In this document: in pieces, positions 1-10,505 of the stretch
Layout: every line of letters starts with the position of its first letter
How positions within the stretch are numbered: position 1 is the first letter of the stretch
Source of the DNA: a virus
Lineage: Duplodnaviria > Heunggongvirae > Uroviricota > Caudoviricetes
Strand: one strand, 5' to 3'
DNA: 35,232 nucleotides
Virus record (IMG/VR): IMGVR_UViG_2541047821_000009
Notes under the pieces: model-generated
The model's input: the letters and a program-made list of their open reading frames with translations, nothing else
What the model was told of the DNA's origin: nothing
The model's database searches: none
Translations under genes and position numbers: made by a program

Positions 1-1011
1 TTATAACGTCACTCCGCCTTTTAGTGGATTCAGAGTGACGGCGTTCTGCAGGTAGTCAGGCGCAAGGTGCGCATAGGTCATTGTCTGCTGAATGCTCGCA
101 TGCCCCAGAATCTGTTGCAGTGCAATTATGTTGCCCCCATTCATCATGAAATGGCTTGCGAATGTATGCCGCAGAATGTGGGTTGCCTGATTGGGAGGTA
201 TATCAGGTTTCACTCTGCGTAAAATCCCGCAAAACTTCTCATAATCTACCTTGAACAATTTGGCGCTGGCCTCCTCTTTAACTTTTTTCTCCAGTTCCTC
301 AGAAATCGGCACTGTTCGCTTTTTACCGTTTTTGGTTTTCAGGAAGGTAACCCTGCAACTTGTAATCTGTGCTGGTTTTAGCGTGGCAACTTCCGTCCAT
401 CTTCCTCCAGTGCTCAGACATAAAAGCGCGACAAGTAAGTCATCACCAGTCAAAACATTTAGCAGTTTTTCGATTTCCGCTTTTTCCAGGAACGTCATTT
501 CAGGGTTAGCCTCCGTCAGTGGCGGCAGTCCGTGAATTGGGTGTTGCCCGGAAAATTCATCCAATTGAATTAATTTTGTGAACATGCCGGATAATCGGTA
601 CATGTCGCGGTTTATCGTTGCAGCACTGATGCCGTCACGTAGTCGCATGGAGCGATAATCCATCAAAGCCCTTTTGTTCATCCGACTCACTGGTATATCA
701 CCTATGCCGCTGATGGTTTTGAGCAGATGATTAAACTCTTTTGTCCCATGCTCGTGGTTTTGCCCGTGGTATTTCCACCAGATGTCGAGCAATTCTGTCA
801 AAGTTCGGCGGTCTGCTCGCTGGCCTCCCCATTCTTTCTGACTGGCATTGGCGATTGTGTATCGCTCAAATGCTAGTGCTTCAGCTTTTCTTTCAAATTT
901 CCTGCGGATGCGTTTTCCGTCGCGACCGCGAGGTCTAATGTCCACTTCATAGCGACCATCATCGAGCTTCTTAATTGCCATAAGAAAGCCCTCCGGCGCT
1001 GTATTCACCAT
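1..1011 (-). CDS. int: Tyrosine recombinase (P2-type integrase)
   Basis: 336-aa ORF; C-terminal box II 'ILRHTFASHF' and catalytic Tyr context 'TMTYAHL'; sits at the prophage end beside the C repressor as in P2; minus-strand stop codon at bases 1-3. Confidence 0.9.
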   Translation of the reverse strand: MVNTAPEGFLMAIKKLDDGRYEVDIRPRGRDGKRIRRKFERKAEALAFERYTIANASQKEWGGQRADRRTLTELLDIWWKYHGQNHEHGTKEFNHLLKTISGIGDIPVSRMNKRALMDYRSMRLRDGISAATINRDMYRLSGMFTKLIQLDEFSGQHPIHGLPPLTEANPEMTFLEKAEIEKLLNVLTGDDLLVALLCLSTGGRWTEVATLKPAQITSCRVTFLKTKNGKKRTVPISEELEKKVKEEASAKLFKVDYEKFCGILRRVKPDIPPNQATHILRHTFASHFMMNGGNIIALQQILGHASIQQTMTYAHLAPDYLQNAVTLNPLKGGVTL

Positions 1012-1050
1012 CTTGGTAGCAAATGGTGAAAATGTAATTTTTATATAGAG

Positions 1051-1344
1051 TTAGCCAATCCTTTTCGCGGAGTGGTCGGATTCTGTTGATTCTGGCCCAA
1101 TGTGCGCGAGAGCCGGTGCGATTTGTCCCGCTTCCGGCGCTGTTTTATCTGTCATGAGCCATAGTGTGTATTTTTGGAACTGAGGTGCATTGGTGACCTG
1201 CAACACAACTTGGATGCCAGGGTCTTGATGGCCTCCTTCGTAATTCTTTAGCGTTCCTAACGCTATGCCGCTGATTTCACTGAATTTTGCTTGAGTTAGC
1301 CCTTCCGATTGTCTTATTGCTCTTAATTTCTGTGCGATATTCAT
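1051..1344 (-). CDS. C: Immunity repressor C (HTH, XRE-like)
   Basis: Internal Met 'MNIAQKLRAIRQSEGLTQAKFSEISGIA' gives a 97-aa product (P2 C is about 99 aa, from memory); helix-turn-helix signature; divergent from cox; the longer 158-aa track ORF is probably an upstream read-through. Confidence 0.75.
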   Translation of the reverse strand: MNIAQKLRAIRQSEGLTQAKFSEISGIALGTLKNYEGGHQDPGIQVVLQVTNAPQFQKYTLWLMTDKTAPEAGQIAPALAHIGPESTESDHSAKRIG

Positions 1345-1374
1345 TTGACATAGTCCTGACTTAATGACTATATT
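1345..1374 (+). promoter_or_regulatory. Candidate early promoter Pe (TTGACA-N18-TATATT)
   Basis: TTGACA at 1345-1350 and TATATT at 1369-1374 with 18-bp spacer, reading rightward toward cox; the -35 directly abuts the C start codon; TGACT direct repeat inside the spacer may be operator half-sites. Confidence 0.4.
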
Positions 1375-1375
1375 C

Positions 1376-1409
1376 CCCGAAAAGGTCATTAATCCAGAAC
1401 CTTTTCGGG
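1376..1409. repeat. Perfect 11-bp inverted repeat (CCCGAAAAGGT-N12-ACCTTTTCGGG) in the C/cox switch region
   Basis: Read directly: cccgaaaaggt (1376-1386) and accttttcggg (1399-1409); lies just downstream of the candidate Pe -10. Confidence 0.5.
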
Positions 1410-1479
1410 CGTGAGTCCAGCGCCGCTTAAACGGTTCCAAGCGGTTTTTAAGGGGCTGGATCCTATGAGGGTAACATAG

Positions 1480-1752
1480 ATGGAAGTTAATGATTATGTG
1501 ATTAAGTACCCGCTTGATGCGGTACATGCGGAAAAGTTTGCAGATTTATTGGGTAAACCAAAAACCGCAGTTACAGAAATGATAAAGGCTAACAAGCTAC
1601 CGGTTATCGAGCTTCGAGATCCAAATAAGCCGAAGGCCCGCGCCGGTGAGAAATGGGTTTTCATTCCAGAGTTTAATCGCGCTGTGCGTGAGGCGTTTTA
1701 TAACCGACCGGTTGAACAGCGTGATGCATGGCTTTTGTGGATGGGGTTGTGA
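1480..1752 (+). CDS. cox: Cox-like excisionase / early-operon regulator
   Basis: 90 aa (P2 Cox is about 91 aa); first gene of the rightward early operon, divergent from C; motif 'KLPVIELRDPNKPKARAGEKWVF'. Confidence 0.7.
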   Translation: MEVNDYVIKYPLDAVHAEKFADLLGKPKTAVTEMIKANKLPVIELRDPNKPKARAGEKWVFIPEFNRAVREAFYNRPVEQRDAWLLWMGL

Positions 1753-1754
1753 TT

Positions 1755-1925
1755 ATGAATGAGCCGCGTTGTATTGCTCAGTTACTGCGTAACGAAAGCC
1801 CCAGGGCGATTGACTTCACCATCACCCACGGGAAGGGACGCAAGGGAATCATTATCCGCACCAAAAAACAGAGTCCGTTAAAAAAGGCTCTGACCTTTCT
1901 GAAAAGCCGGAGGGTATGGAAATGA
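1755..1925 (+). CDS. Small early protein (P2 orf78-like position)
   Basis: ATG at 1755 three bases after the cox stop; fills the cox-B gap; no recognisable domain. Confidence 0.35.
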   Translation: MNEPRCIAQLLRNESPRAIDFTITHGKGRKGIIIRTKKQSPLKKALTFLKSRRVWK

Positions 1926-2422
1926 CAGTGATGACGCTCAATCTCGTTGAAAAACAGCCAGCAACTATGCGCCGGATAATTGGTAAGCATCTTGCCGTCC
2001 CTCGCTGGCAGGATACATGTGATTATTATAATCAGATGATGGAGCGCGAACGGCTAACGGTTTGCTTTCATGCACAGTTAAAACAGCGTCACGCAACGAT
2101 GCGTTTTGAAGAAATGAACGACGTCGAACGTGAACGACTGGTTTGTGCAATTGATGAATTGCGTGGGGCATTCTCAAAACGCCGTCAGGTTGGCGCAAGT
2201 GAGTATGCATATATTAGTTTTTTAACAGTCAGTCAGCGCCGTACTTTATTTATGCACGCACGACTGACAGAAAAAGAATTTAACCAGCCATACTGGCGAA
2301 TTAATGAGGAATCATGTTACTGGCGTGATGCTTTATTCCGTGCATTACGTGAATTATTCAGTCTGTTTGAGTATGCACCGACAATTCTGACGTCGGTAAA
2401 ACCAGAGCAATATCTGCATTAA
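1916..2422 (+). CDS. B: Replication protein B (helicase-loader-like)
   Basis: 168 aa versus about 166 aa for P2 B; position after cox/orf78. Confidence 0.7.
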   Translation: MEMTVMTLNLVEKQPATMRRIIGKHLAVPRWQDTCDYYNQMMERERLTVCFHAQLKQRHATMRFEEMNDVERERLVCAIDELRGAFSKRRQVGASEYAYISFLTVSQRRTLFMHARLTEKEFNQPYWRINEESCYWRDALFRALRELFSLFEYAPTILTSVKPEQYLH

Positions 2423-2485
2423 GTAATTAACCAGAGTTTTTAACGCACTTAATTGTGCGGGGCTTCTTTTTGCCTGGAGAAAGTC

Positions 2486-2710
2486 ATGCATACAGTTTCT
2501 GAAAATCAGTGCGGTAAATACGCATTACTGCTGCAACAGGCCAGAACCGAAGCACAGGCCGACGCAGCGACGCGCTTTTCTTCTCATCTTGACGTCATGA
2601 TTCGCCACATCACAAAGGCGGAGTTATCCCGCGTGGAGATAGTCGAGCTGCTCAGTCAGGAGTCGGAAAAATTTCACAACATCGGATTGTCTCGCGGGGA
2701 GGTGCTTTGA
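2486..2710 (+). CDS. Hypothetical early protein (orf80 position)
   Basis: ORF with GGAGAAAG ribosome-binding site before ATG at 2486; stop overlaps the next start. Confidence 0.5.
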
Positions 2711-3012
2711 TGTCCTGTTCTCGTTCAGTTGTTTTACTGAACAATGCCTTAAAAATCGCCGTTATGAAAAATGGCGATTTGTCTCTTATTCAACTTGGTC
2801 TTGATAAAGAAAAACGCGAAATAACTGAATCTGCTATCGCGATTTATCAGAGTGAATTAAACCTCCTGTCTGATGTGGTCAATTTACTTGTTAAACGCGC
2901 TGTATTTCACAAGCAAATTTCCTCCGTGGATGAACTGACAAAATTAACGACAGAAATCGCCAGCTATTGCGCTGATGAATTTAAGAAACTGAACGACAAA
3001 AGGAGCTGGTAA
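2707..3012 (+). CDS. Hypothetical early protein (orf81 position)
   Basis: 101-aa ORF, translationally coupled on both sides (ATGA overlaps). Confidence 0.5.
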
Positions 3013-3236
3013 TGCCGGACAACGTGGATTTTATTCAGGAACAACAGGCTGAATTACTGGAGCGCCAGATTAACGCGGCAAGGGTAAAGCATTGCGGTGC
3101 TTCTGCGCTGGTTTGCGAAGAGTGTGACGCGCCAATACCTGCTGCCCGTCGTGCGGCTTATCCGTCAGCCACGCGTTGTGTTTCCTGTCAGTCAGTCTTT
3201 GAAGCAAAAAACAAACATTACCGGAGAACGGCATGA
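3012..3236 (+). CDS. TraR/DksA-family C4 zinc-finger protein
   Basis: 74 aa; 'CEECDAPIP...CVSCQ' CxxC-N17-CxxC motif; AGGAG ribosome-binding site. Confidence 0.65.
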   Translation: MPDNVDFIQEQQAELLERQINAARVKHCGASALVCEECDAPIPAARRAAYPSATRCVSCQSVFEAKNKHYRRTA

Positions 3237-3511
3237 GTATTCGTATTGAAATTGGCGAACGTTATGTCGTTACCAGTGACAGCTTTCAGTTTATTCTCCA
3301 CGAGAAAAAGAGAGCGGAAAGCGGTAAAAACGCCGGTCAGGAGTGGCTGGCGGTGGTTGGTTATTACCCGAAATTAAGCCAGCTCGTTTCCGGTCTGATG
3401 CATCACGATATTCTGACCGGAAGCGCAAAGTCTTTTGCTGATTTAAACACGCAGGTTGAGCAGCTCAGCAAGCGTTGTTCAGAGGCGTTCTCCAGAGGAG
3501 CGTCTGAATGA
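3233..3511 (+). CDS. Hypothetical early protein (orf83 position)
   Basis: 92-aa ORF, coupled to neighbours. Confidence 0.5.
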   Translation: MSIRIEIGERYVVTSDSFQFILHEKKRAESGKNAGQEWLAVVGYYPKLSQLVSGLMHHDILTGSAKSFADLNTQVEQLSKRCSEAFSRGASE

Positions 3512-4515
3512 TTACTGATGCTCGTTGCCATACTGAAAATACCATCAATGTTATTTTTGTTTCAGGTGGAAAGGACAGCCTTGCTCAGTGGCTTGTCGCT
3601 ATTGAAGAAAATGTACCCATATTGCCGGTTTTTGCTGATACGGGACATGAACATCCACAGACAATGAAATATCTGGATTATCTGGAAAAACGGCTTGGCC
3701 CAATTAAAAGAGTCAGAGCTGATTTTTCCTGCCGGATTGAATCAAAGCGCAAGTTTATCCAGACCAAATGGCCTGATTTGTTGGTTAACGATTGTGGAAT
3801 GTCGGAAGAAGAAGCGCACCAGCGCATCAGTTGTGCGCTGGAAATTCTCAAACCAACGGGTATCCCGTTTCTTGATTTGTGTCTGTGGAAGGGGCGTTTC
3901 CCATCAACCAAAGCCAGATTTTGCACATTTGAACTGAAACATGAACCCGTGCGTTCTCAGGTAATCCTGCCTTTACTCAATGAATTTGAGGAAGTGATTA
4001 GCTGGCAGGGAGTGCGTGCTCAGGAATCGCCATCACGCGCAGCTTTACCTGTCTGGGAAGAGGATGCAGACAACACACCCGGATTGCATGTATATCGCCC
4101 GATTTTGCACTGGAAGCATGAAGATGTATTTGCAATAGCCAGAAGACATGACATTAAGCCAAATCCGTTATATCAGCAGGGGTGTGGCCGTGTTGGTTGT
4201 ATGCCATGTATTCATGTCCGTAAATCTGAACTGGCAGAAATTTTTCGCCGGTGGCCGGAGGAAATAAAGCGGGTTGCTGAATGGGAACGACTGGTTGCGT
4301 CGTGCTCCCGTCGGGGAAATTCCACTTTTTTCCCATCCACACATGATCCGCTACGCGCAGAACGTCGTATTGAGGTTGTAACAGTCGAGGCATACGGAAT
4401 TGAAACCTACCATGACTGGACAATGACAACGCGTGGGGGTACTCAGTTTGATTTACTGGCTTCGGCGAATGATAAAGCCGTTTGCAGTAGTGTCTATGCC
4501 GGTGTATGTGAATGA
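3508..4515 (+). CDS. PAPS-reductase / DndC-like PP-loop ATP pyrophosphatase family protein
   Basis: 335 aa; N-terminal PP-loop 'VIFVSGGKDS' (SGGxDS); C-terminal Cys cluster 'GCGRVGCMPC'; coupled to A (ATGA overlap). Confidence 0.7.
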   Translation: MITDARCHTENTINVIFVSGGKDSLAQWLVAIEENVPILPVFADTGHEHPQTMKYLDYLEKRLGPIKRVRADFSCRIESKRKFIQTKWPDLLVNDCGMSEEEAHQRISCALEILKPTGIPFLDLCLWKGRFPSTKARFCTFELKHEPVRSQVILPLLNEFEEVISWQGVRAQESPSRAALPVWEEDADNTPGLHVYRPILHWKHEDVFAIARRHDIKPNPLYQQGCGRVGCMPCIHVRKSELAEIFRRWPEEIKRVAEWERLVASCSRRGNSTFFPSTHDPLRAERRIEVVTVEAYGIETYHDWTMTTRGGTQFDLLASANDKAVCSSVYAGVCE

Positions 4516-6803
4516 GTCATTCTTTCCAGGAGCAATACACCTGCGTACCTCCGTCAGCATTTGCCGCAGGCACCGGTAAGACGTTTACCGGTGCTTATGC
4601 ATGGAACGCGCCGCGCGAGGCTGTCGGGCGCGAAAGACCTCTTACACGTGACGAGATGCGTCAGGTGCAAGGTGTTTTATCCACGATTAACCGCCTGCCT
4701 TATTTTTTGCGCTCGCTGTTTACTTCACGCTACGACTACATCCGGCGCACTAAAAGCCCGGTGCACGGGTTTTATTTCCTCACATGCACTTTTCAGCGTC
4801 GTTTATGGCCGCGCATTGAGCGCGTGAATCAGCGCCATGAAATGAACACCGACGCGTCGTTGCTGTTTCTGACAGAGCGTGACCATTATGCGCGTCTGCC
4901 GGGGATGAATGACAAGGAGCTGAAAAAGTTTGCCGCCCGTATTTCATCGCAGCTTTTCATGATGTATGAGGAACTCTGCGATGCATGGGTTGATGCCCAT
5001 GGCGAAAAAGAATCGCTGTTTACGGATGAGGCGCAGGCGCATCTGTATGGTCATGTTGCTGGCGCTGCACGTGCTTTCAATATTTCCCCGCTCTACTGGA
5101 AAAAATACCGTAAAGGACAGATGACCACGAGGCAGGCATATTCTGCCATTGCCCGTCTGTTTAATGATGAGTGGTGGACTCATCAGCTTAAAGGACAGCG
5201 TATGCGCTGGCATGAAGCGTTACTGATAGCTGTCGGGGAGGTTAATAAAGACCGCTCACCTTATGCCAGTAAACACGCCATTCGTGATGTGCGTGCACGC
5301 CGCCAGGCAAATCTGGAATTTCTTAAATCGTGTGACCTTGAAAACAGGGAAACCGGCGAGCGCATCGACCTTATCAGTAAGGTGATGGGCAGTATTTCTA
5401 ATCCAGAAATTCGCCGGATGGAGCTGATGAACACCATCGCCGGTATTGAGCGTTACGCCGCCGCAGAGGGTGATGTGGGGATGTTTATCACGTTGACCGC
5501 ACCGTCAAAGTATCACCCGACACGTCAGGTCGGAAAAGGCGAAAGTAAAACCGTTCAGCTTAATCACGGCTGGAACGATGAGGCATTTAATCCAAAGGAT
5601 GCGCAGCGTTATCTCTGCCGTATCTGGAGCCTGATGCGCACGGCATTCAAGGATAATGATTTACAGGCCTACGGTTTGCGTGTCGTCGAGCCACACCATG
5701 ACGGAACGCCACACTGGCATATGATGCTTTTTTGTAATCCACGCCAGCGTAACCAGATTATCGAAATCATGCGTCGCTATGCGCTCAAAGAGGATGGCGA
5801 CGAAAGAGGAGCCGCGCGAAACCGTTTTCAGGCAAAACATCTTAACCGGGGCGGTGCTGCGGGGTATATCGCGAAATACATCTCAAAAAATATCGACGGC
5901 TATGCACTGGATGGGCAGCTCGATAACGATACCGGCAGACCGCTGAAAGATACTGCCGCGGCTGTTACCGCATGGGCGTCAACGTGGCGCATTCCGCAAT
6001 TTAAAACGGTTGGCCTGCCGACAATGGGGGCTTACCGTGAACTACGCAAATTGCCTCGCGGCGTCAGCATTGCTGATGAGTTTGACGAGCGCGTCGAGGC
6101 TGCACGCGCCGCCGCAGACAGTGGTGATTTTGCGTTGTATATCAGCGCGCAGGGTGGGGCAAATGTCCCGCGCGATTGTCAGACTGTCAGGGTCGCCCGT
6201 AGCCCGTCGGATGACGTTAACGAGTACGAGGAAGAAGTCGAGAGAGTGGTCGGCATTTACGCGCCGCATCTCGGCGCGCGTCATATTCATATCACCAGAA
6301 CGACGGACTGGCGCATTGTACCGAAAGTTCCGGTCGTTGAGCCTTTGACTTTAAAAAGCGGCATCGCCGCGCCTCGGAGTCCTGTCAATAACTGTGGAAA
6401 GCTCACTGGTGGTGATACTTCGTTACCGGCTCCCACACCTTCTGAGCACGCCGCAGCAGTGCTTAATCTGGTTGATGACGGTGTTATTGAATGGAATGAA
6501 CCGGAGGTCGTGAGGGCGCTCAGGGGCGCATTAAAACACGACCTGCGAACGCCAAACCGTCAGCAAAGAAACGGAAGCCCGTTAAAACCACATGAAATTG
6601 CACCATCGGCCAGACTGACCCGGTCGGAAAGAATGCAAATTACCCGTATCCGCGTTGACCTTGCTCAGAACGGTATCAGACCGCAGCGATGGGAGCTTGA
6701 GGCGCTGGCGCGTGGCGCGACCGTAAATTATGACGGGAAAAAATTCACGTATCCGGTCGCTGATGAGTGGCCGGGATTCTCAACAGTAATGGAGTGGAAA
6801 TGA
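4512..6803 (+). CDS. A: Rolling-circle replication initiator endonuclease (gpA)
   Basis: 763 aa (P2 A is about 761 aa); HUH-type metal motif 'HHDGTPHWHMMLF' and catalytic Tyr region 'YIAKYISKNIDGY'. Confidence 0.85.
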   Translation: MSHSFQEQYTCVPPSAFAAGTGKTFTGAYAWNAPREAVGRERPLTRDEMRQVQGVLSTINRLPYFLRSLFTSRYDYIRRTKSPVHGFYFLTCTFQRRLWPRIERVNQRHEMNTDASLLFLTERDHYARLPGMNDKELKKFAARISSQLFMMYEELCDAWVDAHGEKESLFTDEAQAHLYGHVAGAARAFNISPLYWKKYRKGQMTTRQAYSAIARLFNDEWWTHQLKGQRMRWHEALLIAVGEVNKDRSPYASKHAIRDVRARRQANLEFLKSCDLENRETGERIDLISKVMGSISNPEIRRMELMNTIAGIERYAAAEGDVGMFITLTAPSKYHPTRQVGKGESKTVQLNHGWNDEAFNPKDAQRYLCRIWSLMRTAFKDNDLQAYGLRVVEPHHDGTPHWHMMLFCNPRQRNQIIEIMRRYALKEDGDERGAARNRFQAKHLNRGGAAGYIAKYISKNIDGYALDGQLDNDTGRPLKDTAAAVTAWASTWRIPQFKTVGLPTMGAYRELRKLPRGVSIADEFDERVEAARAAADSGDFALYISAQGGANVPRDCQTVRVARSPSDDVNEYEEEVERVVGIYAPHLGARHIHITRTTDWRIVPKVPVVEPLTLKSGIAAPRSPVNNCGKLTGGDTSLPAPTPSEHAAAVLNLVDDGVIEWNEPEVVRALRGALKHDLRTPNRQQRNGSPLKPHEIAPSARLTRSERMQITRIRVDLAQNGIRPQRWELEALARGATVNYDGKKFTYPVADEWPGFSTVMEWK

Positions 6804-7255
6804 TGGCAAAAATTCACGAGGTAAAGCTGCACGCTAAATATTTTGACCTTGTGCTGGAAGGAAAGAAACGCGCAGAGTTTCGGAAAAATGACCGTAATTA
6901 TGAGCGCGGGGACACGTTGATTTTGCATGAATGGGTACAGGGTGTGTATACGGGGCGAAAGGTTGAAGCCCGGATAACAGATGTTACTGACCTGTCAGAC
7001 TGGCTGGAAGATTATGTCTTGCTAAGTATTGAGCTGCTTAATACAGGCGCATATGAGACTGTGAACTGGAAAGAACTTAGTGAGCGTGGTCTGGTATTCA
7101 GAATTAATCATGAAATTATGCATCAGCTCGGCCTTGCTGTTATGTATGAACCAGAGACGGGGATGTCTGGCGGGGCAATGGTTGCCACGGATGGAGCATG
7201 GAACTATTCAGATGAACAGATGGAGCGTGCACAGCAAAACGGGTGGCTTGGATAA
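6800..7255 (+). CDS. ASCH (PUA-like) domain protein
   Basis: 'EGKKRAEFR' matches the ASCH G-K-x-x-E-x-R signature; ATG overlaps the A stop; first gene of the accessory locus. Confidence 0.6.
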   Translation: MMAKIHEVKLHAKYFDLVLEGKKRAEFRKNDRNYERGDTLILHEWVQGVYTGRKVEARITDVTDLSDWLEDYVLLSIELLNTGAYETVNWKELSERGLVFRINHEIMHQLGLAVMYEPETGMSGGAMVATDGAWNYSDEQMERAQQNGWLG

Positions 7256-7467
7256 TGCACAGAATACCAGGCGAGATACCGCACCATAAAACTAAAAATA
7301 TCAAGCTGATGGCTATTGTTCACCGTCTACAGCAGATTATGGTCAACGAAAATTTGACGCCTGATGAGCTAGTCGGGTGTGCCGAAATAGTCCGGGATAA
7401 TTACGGGCGACTTAACTATATCGGTATCGGTCAGTCCAGAGTTGCGCCACCACCACGTAGACGATAG
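7255..7467 (+). CDS. Hypothetical small protein
   Basis: ATG overlaps the ASCH stop (TAATG); 70 aa; no recognisable motif. Confidence 0.35.
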   Translation: MHRIPGEIPHHKTKNIKLMAIVHRLQQIMVNENLTPDELVGCAEIVRDNYGRLNYIGIGQSRVAPPPRRR

Positions 7468-7593
7468 AGAACGCCGCCAGTCGTGAAACTTGTTTTCAGG
7501 GCTGGCGGGGTTGAACAACGAGCGAAGCGAGGCGTTAGTTCAATCGATGATCATAAGCTTATGAGTTAAGCCTCGAGATTTTGTAGAAAGGGT

Positions 7594-7625: not shown

Positions 7626-8651
7626 ATGATGATTGTAAAGGTGATAGACCTTTTTTGTGGTGCTGGCGGATTAACTCATGGTTTGCAACTCGCAGGTCTT
7701 GATGTCGTTGCTGGTATTGACCTTGAGGGGGAATGTCGATTTCCCTATGAAAAAAACAATAAATCAAAGTTTATTGAGAAAGATATCGCTAAAGTAACCA
7801 AAGAGGAATTACTGAAGCTATATGGTGATGCGTCTATAAAAGTATTGGCTGGATGTGCACCTTGCCAACCTTTTTCAAAATATACTCAAGGAAAAGATAA
7901 AGCGGAAGATAAAAAATGGCCTCTTCTTTATGAGTTCGAGCGTTTAATTCGCGAGGTATCTCCAGAAATTGTAACAATGGAGAACGTGCCTGATGTAACT
8001 AAACATAAAGTTTATAATGACTTTTATTGTTCGTTGTTAGAACTGGGATATTATGTTTGGGCATCAAAGGTTGATTGTGTCGAATATGGAATTCCACAGA
8101 ACCGTTCTCGTCATGTATTGTTAGCCTCAAAGTTGGGGGAGATTGAGTTAGTAAAACGTAATGATGTTATTTTGAAAACTGTTAGGGATGCAATAGGTGG
8201 CCTTCCACCATTAGAAGATGGTCAAACAGATCCAAATGATATATTGCATAGAGCCAGTAAATTAAACTCGATTAATAAAAAAAGAATTATACACTCTATT
8301 CCAGGTGGTACATGGAAGGACTGGCCGGAAGAACTTATTGCTGCTTGTCATATGAAGTCTAGCGGTAAAGGGTATGCTAGCGTATATGGGAGGATGTCTT
8401 GGGATAAGCCAAGCCCGACAATTACAACTCTTTGTTATGGTTTTGGGAATGGTCGTTTTGGCCACCCAGAACAGAACAGAGCTATTTCTCTTAGAGAAGC
8501 GGCTTTGTTGCAAACATTTCCTATGGATTATGTTTTTGTTGAAGAACAAGAAAAGTTTGTTATAAGAAGTATTGGAAAAATGATAGGTAATGCTGTGCCA
8601 GTTGAGTTAGGAAAAGTCATTGGGCAATCAATAAAAAATCATTTGAAATAA
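7626..8651 (+). CDS. DNA (cytosine-5)-methyltransferase
   Basis: Motif I 'LFCGAGG', motif IV 'GCAPCQPFS', motif VI 'TMENVPD', motif VIII 'QNRSRHVLLA', C-terminal 'GNAVPVELG'; AT-rich codon usage unlike the phage backbone. Confidence 0.85.
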   Translation: MMIVKVIDLFCGAGGLTHGLQLAGLDVVAGIDLEGECRFPYEKNNKSKFIEKDIAKVTKEELLKLYGDASIKVLAGCAPCQPFSKYTQGKDKAEDKKWPLLYEFERLIREVSPEIVTMENVPDVTKHKVYNDFYCSLLELGYYVWASKVDCVEYGIPQNRSRHVLLASKLGEIELVKRNDVILKTVRDAIGGLPPLEDGQTDPNDILHRASKLNSINKKRIIHSIPGGTWKDWPEELIAACHMKSSGKGYASVYGRMSWDKPSPTITTLCYGFGNGRFGHPEQNRAISLREAALLQTFPMDYVFVEEQEKFVIRSIGKMIGNAVPVELGKVIGQSIKNHLK

Positions 8652-8655
8652 TAAA

Positions 8656-8680
8656 ATGGCCTGCTTTGCAGGCCTTGTGA
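8656..8680. terminator. Bidirectional intrinsic terminator between convergent genes
   Basis: Hairpin GGCCTGC-ttt-GCAGGCC (8658-8674) flanked by an A-run upstream and a T-rich tract downstream. Confidence 0.55.
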
Positions 8681-9361
8681 TTATTTCTCTAAGTATTCAT
8701 TATTATTTATATAATGTTCTATATTATTCGCGATTGCATCAAGATAGGCTATTACTTCTAATGAAATATTCTCTAAATCCTGATATGAAACATTTTTCCC
8801 AATCTCAGCAAATGATACATTTCCATGAGATAAATCATTGCGATGTTGTTTAACAGTGGCTAACTTTTCACCATGTTTAGTGTGAGTGTAATCAGAATGG
8901 GTTGAAAATCCATATATTTTCGATTTTTCTTTTATTTCCTCTCTATCAATATTGCCTGAAAATATTTTCTTTTTGTTGAATGTACCATAAGAAATACCAC
9001 AGGATATGCCTTTAGTAAGTCCGTTGATTAAATTATCGATGTTAACAGATTCATTTTTTAATCTTTTTAAAATTTCTGATTTTAGGTTTTTTTTAAGTTT
9101 GTCAAACTCTATGTTTCTATCATAAATAGTCTCATGTATAAGGCAGATAGCCTCTCTCATTGTTGATTCAATAAGGTTGTATAATAGTATATATACTGCA
9201 CCCTTTAGAGTTTTTCGTGATTGAGATGTAATGGTGAACTTATGTTCTTTATTATCGGATGATATTAATTCCGCACCAGCATGCTCAATAAATTTTAAAA
9301 GATCTAAATAGGCCAAGATTTCTCCTGACCTTTCGTCAAAATCCTCACGAAAACGATCCAT
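8681..9361 (-). CDS. HEPN-like protein (putative RNase effector), partner of the DUF262 protein
   Basis: 226 aa; C-terminal 'QHRNDLSHG' fits the HEPN R-x(4-6)-H motif; its start is 1 nt from the stop of the upstream DUF262 gene. Confidence 0.5.
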   Translation of the reverse strand: MDRFREDFDERSGEILAYLDLLKFIEHAGAELISSDNKEHKFTITSQSRKTLKGAVYILLYNLIESTMREAICLIHETIYDRNIEFDKLKKNLKSEILKRLKNESVNIDNLINGLTKGISCGISYGTFNKKKIFSGNIDREEIKEKSKIYGFSTHSDYTHTKHGEKLATVKQHRNDLSHGNVSFAEIGKNVSYQDLENISLEVIAYLDAIANNIEHYINNNEYLEK

Positions 9362-9362
9362 G

Positions 9363-10505
9363 TTAATCCTCTAATAGTTTGTCTCGCACATATTCAATTC
9401 GTTCAATTACCTTCACGCGACTATTTGCTCCGTCGGAGGTGGTTAATTGTTTGAATTCTTCTGAGCTTAGCCAATCTAAGTTTTTGGGGACAAGGTTAGG
9501 CTCTAGACGTAATGCGAGTGCAGCACCAACAGCGAGAGATTCAAATCTAACTCGAGGTGTAGATTTTGCAGTGATAGTTTTCTTAAAGCCTGCTGGGAAA
9601 TGGTTTTCAACGAAAGACAGAACATTCGAAAACTCTTCTTTCATTGAGTTTTGTTCAGCTTCATCTATATTACTCTTTTCCTTCATGTAATCATTCAGAA
9701 AATCACGCACGGAATGATCAAATTTCTTATATTTATCTAAGTAGGCAAAGAATCTCAATGTAAATTCTAACCGTTCATCTCGTTTTTCTTTAGCCTCAGA
9801 TAAAGGTGCTAACTCCTTAAATTTAGATATTGTCGAGCATGGCTTAATAACCTGCGTATATAAATTTGTTGAGCCAAGTTCTGAACCTTTACGAACTTCC
9901 ATATCTTTCAATATGTCACTACCAGAGTTAATTCGCTCAAAAAGATCCCTGCGGGTTTCTTCATTGCATTTAGAACTCAACTCTATAACACGCACAGGAA
10001 TTCTCATGAAACGGCGTTGGCGTGATAATGGTAAATCTTGGAATCTGAAACCATTAAGAGAACTTAAAGATTTCAGATCTTGTAAAACTAATTCATTGTG
10101 GATAAACGCATGTATGGTTCTAACACGCTGTGAGCCATCAACAATTTCAATCCGTCCATCTAAATCGGGATCTTCTGAAAAGACATCAGCTGTAAATATA
10201 TATGGTATAGGGAAGCCCAAAATTAAAGACTCTATTAATCTTGATTGTCTCTTTTCATTCCAAACAAAGTCCCTTTGATAATCAGGAACAAAGAGTTCGT
10301 TGGTATCATCCTCTAACCCGTTATGATACTTATTAACTAATAACTCAACAGTAAATTCTTTGGTCTCAAAGTCAACATCCTTTTGCTCTGCGCGAATTTG
10401 CTCTTCAGCCTCTTGTTTTATAACTTCTAGCTGAGCTAGGAGTTCTGCCCTTTTTTTGGCATTATCTTCATGTTCTAGTTGAGATTTTAACCCAATAATA
10501 TCCAT
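9363..10505 (-). CDS. DUF262 (ParB/Srx-like, GmrS-type N-terminal domain) protein
   Basis: 380 aa; 'VPDYQRDFVW' and 'IVDGSQRVRTI' match the DUF262 signatures; no HNH/DUF1524 nuclease domain seen in the C-terminal half. Confidence 0.7.
   Translation of the reverse strand: MDIIGLKSQLEHEDNAKKRAELLAQLEVIKQEAEEQIRAEQKDVDFETKEFTVELLVNKYHNGLEDDTNELFVPDYQRDFVWNEKRQSRLIESLILGFPIPYIFTADVFSEDPDLDGRIEIVDGSQRVRTIHAFIHNELVLQDLKSLSSLNGFRFQDLPLSRQRRFMRIPVRVIELSSKCNEETRRDLFERINSGSDILKDMEVRKGSELGSTNLYTQVIKPCSTISKFKELAPLSEAKEKRDERLEFTLRFFAYLDKYKKFDHSVRDFLNDYMKEKSNIDEAEQNSMKEEFSNVLSFVENHFPAGFKKTITAKSTPRVRFESLAVGAALALRLEPNLVPKNLDWLSSEEFKQLTTSDGANSRVKVIERIEYVRDKLLED

Follow-up and report, generated by a model that had tools for sequence, protein, structure and literature searches.

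A PAPS-reductase-superfamily gene related to orf84 of phage 186 is an optional cassette upstream of the replication initiator gene in a P2-like prophage

The Orf84-type gene and its coupled neighbours

The window (the whole 35,232-nucleotide stretch analysed here, IMG/VR virus record IMGVR_UViG_2541047821_000009) carries the gene order int / C / cox / B / orf80-83-like / A of phage Wphi, with 92-96% nucleotide identity. An Orf84-type gene of the PAPS-reductase superfamily lies in the early lytic operon, directly ahead of the replication initiator gene A (Table 1). An earlier note on this DNA described a 335-aa frame with an SGGKDS loop, translationally coupled to A in an early replication operon. 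The ORF list contains this frame, with the loop at residues 19-24, and placement in the early operon agrees with the Wphi gene order.

Table 1. Features at and around the Orf84-type gene, in window coordinates
Feature	Position	Strand	Details and evidence
orf83-like DUF5405 gene, upstream coupled neighbour	3233..3511	+	Pfam DUF5405, E 4e-14
Cassette of 1,055 bp, absent from Wphi	3490..4544	+	blastn, window against Wphi
GAGGAG Shine-Dalgarno / ribosome-binding site before the Orf84-type gene	3495-3500	+	direct sequence reading
Orf84-type PAPS-reductase-superfamily gene	3508..4515	+	ATG start, 335 aa plus stop; ORF list, PF01507, PHROG 424
ATGA stop/start overlap, DUF5405 gene to Orf84-type gene	3508-3511	+	direct sequence reading
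PP-loop SGGKDS codons (residues 19-24), ATP pyrophosphatase signature	3562..3579	+	sequence, alignment
FCTFELKHEP motif (residues 138-147)	3919..3948	+	C139 149/149, K144 149/149
CxxC, C231-M-P-C234	4198..4209	+	C231 138/140, C234 134/139
C-terminal tail CSSVYAGVCE (residues 326-335)	4483..4512	+	predicted flexible; C326 103/115, C334 114/114
ATGA stop/start overlap, Orf84-type gene to A, translational coupling site	4512-4515	+	direct sequence reading
Replication initiator gene A (rolling-circle nickase), downstream coupled	4512..6803	+	Pfam Phage_GPA, E 1.2e-123

Stop and start codons overlap at both ends of the Orf84-type gene. A good Shine-Dalgarno sequence was looked for upstream of the start of A, which encodes a 763-aa Phage_GPA protein, and none was seen; together with the overlap, this bears out the proposed coupling. 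The RefSeq record of phage 186 states that 'translation to end of orf84 appears necessary for translation of A protein', and ribosomes completing the Orf84-type ORF most likely hand translation on to A here, as annotated for 186. The overlap with A has the same layout in 186 and in the listed E. coli prophage copies, the DUF5405 neighbour is also present in cassette-carrying E. coli prophages and in 186, and in 22 related viral loci the PAPS-like gene has a gpA homolog close downstream. A promoter and terminator scan of positions 2900-5200 gave nothing exceeding shuffled expectation, and a terminator within the start of A, in the style of tM1 of 186, was rejected on the same scan.

Cassette and distribution

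In blastn comparison with Wphi, positions 1-3489 of the window align at 91.7% and positions 4545-7540 at 96.1%. The intervening cassette replaces 35 bp of Wphi and extends into both neighbours, covering the final codons of the orf83-like gene and codons 1-11 of A; in Wphi, gp83 is followed directly by A. The cassette is 72.9% identical in nucleotide sequence to the orf84 region of 186, but its flanks barely match 186. Among 5,426 complete E. coli genomes, 43 have the Orf84-type gene and 1,716 have a P2-type A gene. The Orf84-type gene is an optional accessory cassette directly upstream of A in the early lytic operon of a P2-like prophage.

Homologs number 5,826 at E<=1e-5, and those at E<=1e-30 form 309 clusters at 50% identity. 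These numbers and the PAPS_reduct score given below indicate that the ORF is not a chance one. Plasmids searched with tblastn gave 1,745 records; the matches listed are annotated as PAPS-reductase family protein, phosphohydrolase or hypothetical protein, with none among them annotated as DndC or SspD.

Family assignment and predicted fold

The Orf84-type protein matches Pfam PF01507 (PAPS_reduct) with 121.4 bits against a cutoff of 22.5 (E 5.4e-35), residues 15-236 aligning with profile positions 3-174 of 175, and matches PHROG 424 with E 8.6e-86. It has the Rossmann-like alpha/beta ATP-PPase fold, and the AlphaFold2 model has a pLDDT of 94.1 and a pTM of 0.91, with a pLDDT of only 58-75 across the last ~25 residues. 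A BFVD viral fold search matched only other proteins annotated 'PAPS reductase'. Membership of the PAPS-reductase / PP-loop superfamily, proposed from the sequence, is confirmed by the Pfam score. A suggested likeness to QueC is not supported, as the query has no match to PF06508 and some relatives have no more than sub-threshold matches in the PP-loop region (17-19 bits against 22). Some homologs are longer, up to 459 aa, and scanning their N-terminal extensions revealed no fused ParB, HTH or MTase domain.

Conserved residues and candidate active-site parts

Conservation was counted in 150 unselected representatives, the denominator in each case being the sequences that have a residue at the column. 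Every position of SGGKDS is conserved in at least 123 of 130 representatives (S19 128/130, G21 130/130, D23 129/130), and conservation of the PP-loop on alignment, which had been set as a check, is thereby established. A canonical PP-loop suggests an adenylating enzyme. The same stretch aligns with the degenerate SSSFGI of CysH and the SFSGAED of APS reductase.

In the FCTFELKHEP motif, C139 is a candidate first Fe-S ligand and K144 a candidate substrate-binding lysine. The C-x4-K-x2-P spacing appears to be that of CCRLRKVVP in Mycobacterium tuberculosis APS reductase, in a register for C139 that is our own, HMMER having placed the helix 8 residues later. Profile alignment sets VGCmPCi on IGCEPCT of 2goy and GCMPC on GCAPC of 7lhr, so that C231-x2-C234 aligns with the [4Fe-4S] CxxC region of APS reductase. 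These alignments suggest that C139, C231 and C234 are a candidate three-cysteine Fe-S site, and the product is probably an ATP-using, iron-sulfur enzyme. At the extreme C-terminus the subfamily consensus is CSSxYGLCE, with C326 and C334 candidates for persulfide-carrier and resolving cysteines.

The 'C-terminal cysteine cluster' of the earlier note stands in part. C231/C234 and C326/C334 are conserved, and with C139 they make up the only conserved cysteines (5 of 12), but C226, the first cysteine of the CGRVGCMPC string, is kept in just 7% of relatives.

Comparison with CysH and APS reductases

The closest solved structures found with Foldseek are CysH and APS reductase, with a TM-score normalised to the query of only 0.40. 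Against 2goy, 7lhr, 6vpu and 1sur, the DTG motif and the R/E core motifs align, and the CxxC aligns with that of APS reductase. However, the Orf84-type protein has the canonical SGGKDS where CysH has an SSSFG loop and APS reductase SFSGAED, and it has two parts that are absent from CysH, a helical insert of ~65 residues (roughly 70-135) and a C-terminal domain of ~95 residues. At the position of the APS reductase Cys-Cys pair there is a single cysteine, C139, followed by threonine, in our register, HMMER's differing. The C-terminal catalytic motif of CysH is ECGLH; the Orf84-type protein lacks it and ends in AVCSSVYAGVCE (...YAGVCE).

All curated NCBIfam cutoffs for these enzymes are missed. 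Scores against the CysH models are 67.4 vs 154 (NF002537), 46.7 vs 165.1 (TIGR00434) and 39.9 vs 254.2 (TIGR02057), and against the APS reductase models 53.1 vs 235.3 (TIGR02055) and 17.8 vs 553.2 (TIGR00424). As the curated CysH and APS reductase models failed, and the DndC model likewise (see below), the protein is neither a sulfate-assimilation enzyme nor a DndC. The earlier view that sulfate assimilation is not its role was therefore sound, and 'PAPS reductase', the label that thousands of genes of phages, prophages and plasmids bear, almost certainly misstates their function.

Relatives in phages 186 and lambda

The Orf84-type gene is already known, being on record as 186 orf84 and as PHROG 424. 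The product is 76.6% identical in amino acid sequence to 186 Orf84 (CP84; NP_052288.1) over its full length (residues 2-335), and the 186 gene occupies the same slot between the DUF5405 gene and A with ATGA-type coupling. The two differ in context, the gene described here lying in a P2/Wphi-type backbone with flanks 92-96% identical to Wphi and orf84 in a 186-type backbone. The tail spacing here is C-x7-C, whereas the family consensus is C-x6-C. Dispensability, which had been counted in advance against a role in DNA modification, is already on record for 186, where orf84 is annotated 'not essential'; on a laboratory host, a counter-defence gene of the accessory kind would be expected to be non-essential.

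NinC of phage lambda (NP_040635.1), encoded in the early-region nin cluster, is a distant homolog (hhalign probability 99.2%, E 1e-19, 205 columns). Both proteins have the DTGxEHP, FCTxxLK and CxxC motifs, the counterpart of FCTFELKHEP in NinC being FCTDRLKLVP, and NinC has a cysteine pair, CSESCE, close to its C-terminus, as in the Orf84-type tail. However, the two are only 25% identical, the NinC PP-loop is SGGRTS without the aspartate, and NinC, at 290 aa, is the shorter protein and has no helical insert. NinC belongs to another PHROG family, or at least was not retrieved by tblastn at 1e-5. Literature searches found no functional study or role assignment for the Orf84-type subfamily, and nothing usable on 186 orf84, IbrA/IbrB or plasmid leading-region links.

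Comparison with DndC, SspD and BrxP

The PP-loop ATP pyrophosphatase core is common to the Orf84-type protein and to DndC, SspD and BrxP, the comparison with DndC and SspD being based on HMM scores and on residue numbers from publications. In the PADLOC library, which has no curated cutoff, SspD matches best (E 3.1e-21, 74 bits), with residues 127-282 on profile positions 73-216 of 277. BrxP follows with E 8e-13, only residues 132-257 aligning (profile positions 212-336 of 779), and the DndC models reach E 1e-7 at best. The curated DndC model TIGR03183 gives 21.3 bits against a cutoff of 290.4, with residues 132-209 alone aligning. The description 'DndC-like' is thus accurate at the level of the superfamily, but fails against the curated model.

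DndC has three Fe-S ligand cysteines in common with APS reductase and in the same order, Cys146/Cys280/Cys283, that is, one cysteine and, far later, a C-x2-C (PMC12193691). Further conserved cysteines of DndC have been proposed as sulfur carriers. This order appears compatible with C139 ... C231-x2-C234 plus the C326/C334 tail. The Orf84-type protein is much shorter, at 335 aa, than DndC at 540 aa (PMC12193691), and PF01507 is the only domain detected in it, whereas BrxP is a DUF4007 fusion with BrxC/Z/L partners. DndC, SspD and BrxP also belong to host immunity, whereas the Orf84-type gene is phage-borne and lies in a lytic early operon.

Every established phosphorothioation system pairs a PAPS-domain protein with a dedicated NTPase partner, DndD, SspC or BrxC (PMC12914056). 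The 25 families listed for sampled near neighbours in 75 related loci include no DndD/SMC-type ATPase, SspC or BrxC, and no SspB nickase, SspC ATPase or DndE adjoins the gene in the window or is among those 25 families.

DNA methyltransferase genes near Orf84-type genes

The neighbourhood survey covered 75 related viral loci and counted ORFs of 130 aa or more. DNA methyltransferase (MTase) genes occupy position -1 in 12 of 47 cases, falling to about 3% beyond +/-4. They make up 33 of 240 near ORFs but 7 of 301 far ones (Fisher p = 4.8e-7), a test that sets early-region genes against structural and lysogeny genes and, the loci being phylogenetically related, a p-value that overstates independence. 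Grouped at 70% identity, 16 of 33 lineages have an MTase within +/-3 genes, and these belong to four MTase classes. The 29 MTases within +/-2 genes all share the strand of the Orf84-type gene, and of the 16 at +/-1, 13 overlap it or lie within 21 nt of it; in phiE125, MTase gp56 overlaps gp57 by 4 nt. The remaining loci without an MTase within +/-3 genes number 46 of 75.

In the window, the C5 MTase gene (7626..8651) was rejected as a partner. It has 37.5% GC and lies beside HEPN and GmrSD_N/NsnA-like genes at the P2 tin/old hotspot; this MTase, the only one nearby, seems to belong to a separate defence cargo of low GC.

A physical joining of the two kinds of domain is found in Vibrio podophage 44E38.1, whose p0018 is a fusion of a PAPS domain with Dam (Piel et al., bioRxiv 10.1101/2021.05.05.442762). 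The phage PAPS-reductase-superfamily domain is there joined to a DNA adenine methyltransferase, which resembles the linkage of Orf84-type and MTase genes. The cassette with this fusion overcomes Dnd, a phenotype that came from a swap of two genes together (bioRxiv 10.1101/2021.05.05.442762). It is the one experiment that ties such a gene to escape from a defence system, in this case Dnd. However, p0018 consists of a ~175-aa PAPS domain and Dam and lacks the Orf84-type C-terminal domain, and matches of the query in Vibrio phages have about 26-32% identity. The anti-Dnd protein JSS1_004 is an unrelated kinase. Phage PAPS reductases figure among the candidate anti-defence genes under Aca control in a 2026 survey.

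Possible functions

We tentatively favour an accessory DNA-directed modification or anti-restriction function for the Orf84-type enzyme in the P2-like early operon. The earlier proposal of a role in DNA modification or anti-defence survives in this guarded form, its evidence being indirect and drawn from MTase adjacency, the Vibrio PAPS::Dam fusion and the 2026 survey. The enzyme would use ATP to adenylate an oxygen on its substrate, and this oxygen would then be swapped for sulfur. The sulfur, donated by a host cysteine desulfurase (IscS, for example), would be delivered by way of a [4Fe-4S] site like that of DndC and APS reductase and of the flexible cysteine tail at the C-terminus. The substrate would most likely be phage DNA, or its modification state, during early replication, and the enzyme would act alongside phage methyltransferases in accessory self-protection or anti-restriction. 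A bolder form, which we consider improbable, is that Orf84-type enzymes are self-sufficient in sulfur or other modification of DNA and need no NTPase of the DndD, SspC or BrxC type. Access to DNA could then come from a co-encoded MTase or from the nicked or single-stranded DNA produced by gpA, which would be translated in the same ribosome run as the enzyme.

An alternative confined to phosphorothioation is that the protein is a surrogate or decoy for DndC or SspD, either joining host DndDE or SspBC and thereby marking phage DNA as self, or poisoning that machinery. This would account for the absent phage-encoded NTPase partner and is consistent with SspD being the best defence-library match, with BrxP and DndC also matched, and with escape of the Vibrio phage from Dnd. 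We nevertheless regard it as unlikely, given the DndC score far below its cutoff and the remoteness and different architecture of the Vibrio protein. Phosphorothioation systems are also rare, with dndCD in about 4% of genomes and sspBCD in about 3% (PMC12914056), whereas Orf84 relatives occur in many phage types and form hundreds of clusters at 50% identity. There is likewise only a small chance that the target is not DNA, and that thiolation or adenylation of a tRNA (as by TtuA, TtcA or ThiI-like enzymes), a protein (as by the QueC-like Cap9), a nucleotide or a cofactor tunes translation or evades RNA-targeting or signalling defences. More than half of the loci have no adjacent MTase, and the subfamily has no recognisable fused DNA-binding domain, both of which favour this explanation. 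The tight, same-strand and often overlapping linkage to four MTase classes and the Dam fusion in a relative argue against it, and the best non-phage sequence relatives are the APS/PAPS-reductase and SspD groups, not tRNA enzymes.

Two further explanations are very improbable. If the gene were an auxiliary metabolic gene, its product would be a PAPS/APS reductase raising host sulfate assimilation during infection, which is what the name used by Pfam, PHROG and RefSeq implies and what the closest solved structures, CysH and APS reductase, might suggest. Scores far under the NCBIfam cutoffs (67 vs 154 for CysH, 53 vs 235 for APS reductase), a canonical loop where true reductases have a degenerate one, a C-terminus without the ECGLH motif, an insert and C-terminal domain foreign to CysH and the low query-normalised TM-score all oppose this, and no other sulfur-assimilation genes were found among the near neighbours sampled. 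Equally hard to credit is an unimportant product, with the ORF kept mainly as a translated leader bringing ribosomes to A. The ATGA overlap, the lack of a good Shine-Dalgarno sequence at A and the 186 annotation, under which A requires orf84 to be translated to its end but the product is not essential, would fit. However, Wphi couples A to the short gp83 without a 1-kb ORF, catalytic-looking residues are invariant over hundreds of diverged clusters, the predicted fold is very confident, and relatives occur in phages with no gpA homolog among the four flanking ORFs on each side.

The family reaches some of the best-studied phages through 186 Orf84 and lambda NinC. A DNA-modifying or defence-disarming function would account for a recurrent module beside phage methyltransferases and would offer a tool for engineering phages past restriction barriers. 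Were the enzymes self-sufficient, they would make up a minimal single-protein class of phage DNA modification spanning P2/186-like phages, lambdoid phages (NinC), many others and possibly conjugative plasmids. The copy in the window adds no new biology beyond that of the family. It is a cleanly delimited example in a P2-like prophage that is easy to manipulate and in which any knock-out of the Orf84-type gene has to keep translation into A.

Gene boundaries, context and family

Locations of the Orf84-type gene and of other features of the window are listed below.

Features of the window surrounding the Orf84-type gene
Feature	Position	Strand	Remarks
DUF5405 paralog	2707..3012		
TraR/DksA zinc-finger gene	3012..3236		between the DUF5405 paralogs
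DUF5405 paralog	3233..3511		
GAGGAG ribosome-binding site	3495-3500	+	5′ of the Orf84-type start
Orf84-type ORF	3508..4515	+	ATG start, 335 codons
orf91-like gene	6767..7255		downstream of A; DUF3850/ASCH (PUA-like) and DUF7415 fusion
C5 DNA methyltransferase	7626..8651	+	low-GC cargo
HEPN MAE_28990 protein	8681..9361	-	low-GC cargo
GmrSD_N/DUF262 protein	9363..10505	-	low-GC cargo; PADLOC NsnA 2.8e-55, PD-T4-2_A 7e-35

The gene is real, and an earlier note had described it accurately as encoding a 335-aa protein with an SGGKDS PP-loop; the loop is at residues 19-24, and the product contains 12 cysteines. At 3508-3511, an ATGA contains both the start of the gene and the stop of the preceding ORF, which encodes a DUF5405 protein resembling P2 orf83. 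A second ATGA, at 4512-4515, joins its stop to the start of A, which encodes a 763-aa Phage_GPA replication initiator (Pfam, E 1e-123). This overlap, and the lack of a good Shine-Dalgarno in the sequence preceding A, bear out the proposed coupling. Membership of the PAPS-reductase-type family was likewise confirmed (Pfam PAPS_reduct, 121 bits; cutoff 22.5). At E≤1e-5, a 90%-clustered collection contains 5,826 homologs, and relatives at E≤1e-30 form 309 clusters at 50% identity. The two DUF5405 paralogs belong to the same early operon, like P2 orf81 and orf83.

Sequence comparison identifies the window as a P2-like (Peduovirus) prophage. Positions 1-7514 share 93.9% identity with Yersinia phage P37, and over most of this region Wphi, L-413C and several P2-like Peduovirus records reach about 94-95%. 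In Wphi, A comes straight after gp83; blastn alignments cover 1-3489 (91.7%) and 4545-7540 (96.1%), and the 1,055 bp at 3490-4544 stand in place of just 35 bp. This region shares 72.9% nucleotide identity with phage 186, which the flanks otherwise barely match, and 186 orf84 [NP_052288.1], whose product is 76.6% identical, likewise lies between a DUF5405 gene and A. The 186 record marks orf84 as non-essential and notes that A seems to require translation through to the orf84 end. From the 1-kb replacement and the orf84 match, the gene is judged to be a well-bounded optional cassette common to P2-type and 186-type phages at a single slot. A P2-type A gene was found in 1,716 of 5,426 complete E. 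coli genomes (2,015 places) and the Orf84-type gene in only 43; among the matches listed, every E. coli copy directly adjoins a replication endonuclease gene. Neither the gene nor its family is new: an identical protein is present in public databases, and RefSeq names the E. coli copies "phosphoadenosine phosphosulfate reductase family protein".

Conserved residues and predicted chemistry

Two alignments were made, one of 61 hand-picked relatives (39-82% identity) and one of all 150 unselected representatives, in which conservation was counted over sequences with a residue at the column. Across the 150, the SGGKDS loop is essentially invariant, C139 and K144 are each conserved in 149/149, C231 in 138/140, C234 in 134/139, C334 in 114/114 and C326 in 103/115. 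C226 and C266 are each kept in only 7%. In total, only five of the 12 cysteines are conserved, which amends the C-terminal cysteine cluster of the earlier note.

The CxxC region of APS reductase (2goy, 7lhr) aligns with the CxxC here. C139-x4-K144-x2-P147 has the spacing of CCRLRKVVP in the M. tuberculosis APS reductase, a register that we infer, since HMMER sets the helix eight residues later. The conserved cysteines follow the order of DndC Cys146, Cys280 and Cys283, Fe-S cysteines common with APS reductase (PMC12193691); further DndC cysteines are proposed to handle sulfur. The conserved CSSxYGLCE tail at the extreme C-terminus is the sole low-confidence part of the structure model, and in this it resembles the flexible cysteine-bearing tails seen in sulfur-relay enzymes. 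Taken together, the PP-loop, core cysteines and tail predict an enzyme that would use ATP for adenylation, with three cysteines forming an Fe-S site and a further pair carrying sulfur, whose chemistry would follow the kind of logic used by DndC, SspD and TtuA.

Lambda NinC is distantly homologous (hhalign 99.2%, E 1e-19) and has the full motif set of the family, namely SGGRTS, DTGCEHP, FCTDRLK, CxxC and, at the C-terminal end, CSESCE. Two classic model phages therefore have related enzymes, for which the sole annotation is PAPS reductase. The ninC gene is at 882-1754 of locus L089 (lambda, NC_001416).

All curated NCBIfam cutoffs for CysH (NF002537, 67 bits against 154; TIGR00434, 47 against 165), PAPS reductase (TIGR02057, 40 against 254), APS reductase (TIGR02055, 53 against 235) and DndC (TIGR03183, 21 against 290) were missed, and a Pfam scan of the protein gave no QueC match. 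Against solved structures, SGGKDS of the family profile lies opposite degenerate loops, SSSFGI in CysH and SFSGAED in APS reductase. CysH has a C-terminal catalytic motif, ECGLH; the protein ends in YAGVCE and has no ECGLH. It is therefore not a sulfate-assimilation enzyme, as the earlier note had argued, nor DndC or QueC, with which comparison had been suggested; that it is a true sulfate reductase is scarcely credible given these scores and the canonical loop.

Methyltransferase genes near Orf84-type homologs

In every distant annotated phage examined (six phages), a DNA methyltransferase (MTase) gene lies no more than three genes from the homolog: phiE125, where MTase gp56 overlaps homolog gp57 by 4 nt, Serratia Parlo, Stenotrophomonas S1, Acidovorax Alfacinha1, Shewanella SFCi1 and a Porphyromonas phage. 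Parlo also has an ASCH-domain gene, five genes from the PAPS-like gene. ORFs were then called in 80 viral loci, and 150 near (±1-3) and 150 far (≥±5) ORFs were scanned with Pfam. Near ORFs included 11 D12 Dam, 6 C5, 4 N6_N4, 2 MT-A70 and one Mom, and the families listed for far ORFs included 2 MT-A70 and 2 N6_N4. One locus among L009-L088 has a gene of the Mom family (DNA hypermodification; Pfam, E 1.4e-67) at most three genes away from the PAPS-like gene.

When ORFs of at least 130 aa were counted with HMMs, MTases made up 12 of 47 at position -1 and about 3% at distances above ±4. Near and far totals were 33/240 and 7/301 (Fisher p = 4.8e-7), the loci being interrelated and the far set representing other functional modules. 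An MTase occurs within ±3 genes in 29/75 loci, equivalent to 26/64 groups at 90% identity and 16/33 at 70%; most of the 75 loci have no adjacent MTase. All 29 MTases within ±2 genes are on the strand of the PAPS-like gene, and 13 of the 16 at ±1 overlap it or are ≤21 nt away. The involvement of four chemically different MTase classes makes a common role on DNA seem likelier than a reaction performed jointly on a single base.

A D12-class Dam gene is at -1 in many P2/186-like relatives (L017, L022, L030, L032, L033, L035, L036 and L039), and either overlaps the PAPS-like gene or abuts it, with gaps of -7 to +2 nt. Hence the slot before A varies and may carry Dam, the PAPS-like gene or the two together; in phage 186 an exonuclease gene is there as well.

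Proposed role

On the favoured but tentative reading, the Orf84-type protein would be an accessory enzyme that acts early on phage DNA or its modification state and belongs to the phage anti-restriction repertoire, and its ORF would also be a translated leader for A. That the ORF is a mere coupling leader is very improbable: the ATGA junction with A accords with a leader, but the near-invariant PP-loop and cysteines count against it. Action on a substrate other than DNA, such as tRNA or protein, is unlikely; the predicted chemistry is of a kind seen in TtuA as well as DndC, but the MTase genes close to some of the homologs point to DNA.

A counter-measure specific to phosphorothioation systems is similarly doubtful.

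In a Vibrio podophage, escape from Dnd is conferred by a cassette of which a PAPS-domain::Dam fusion is one part (bioRxiv 10.1101/2021.05.05.442762). Established phosphorothioation systems all require a PAPS-domain protein and an NTPase (PMC12914056), and no NTPase partner is among the families listed for the sampled near neighbours, which argues against autonomous canonical phosphorothioation.

Aca-regulated phage PAPS reductases are putative anti-defence genes in a 2026 survey (PMC13551039). The modification or anti-defence role suggested in the earlier note agrees with the hypothesis in the literature found and is partly supported; no functional work on the Orf84-type subfamily turned up in the search. 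Taken overall, the family is a worthwhile experimental target.

Low-GC cargo and plasmid relatives

The 7626..10505 segment lies where P2 has its tin/old hotspot, is about 30-37.5% GC (window, 51%) and is probably a defence pair that the prophage carries together with a methylase. A distant PAPS-reductase-family gene occurs on 1,745 plasmids in a plasmid collection, 1,162 of them conjugative (e.g. NZ_CP117401.1, 2596-3198). Its product is ~26% identical to the Orf84-type protein over residues 132-328 of the latter, which include part of the C-terminal domain, and in many records the gene has the same coordinates, ~2.6-3.2 kb from the record start.
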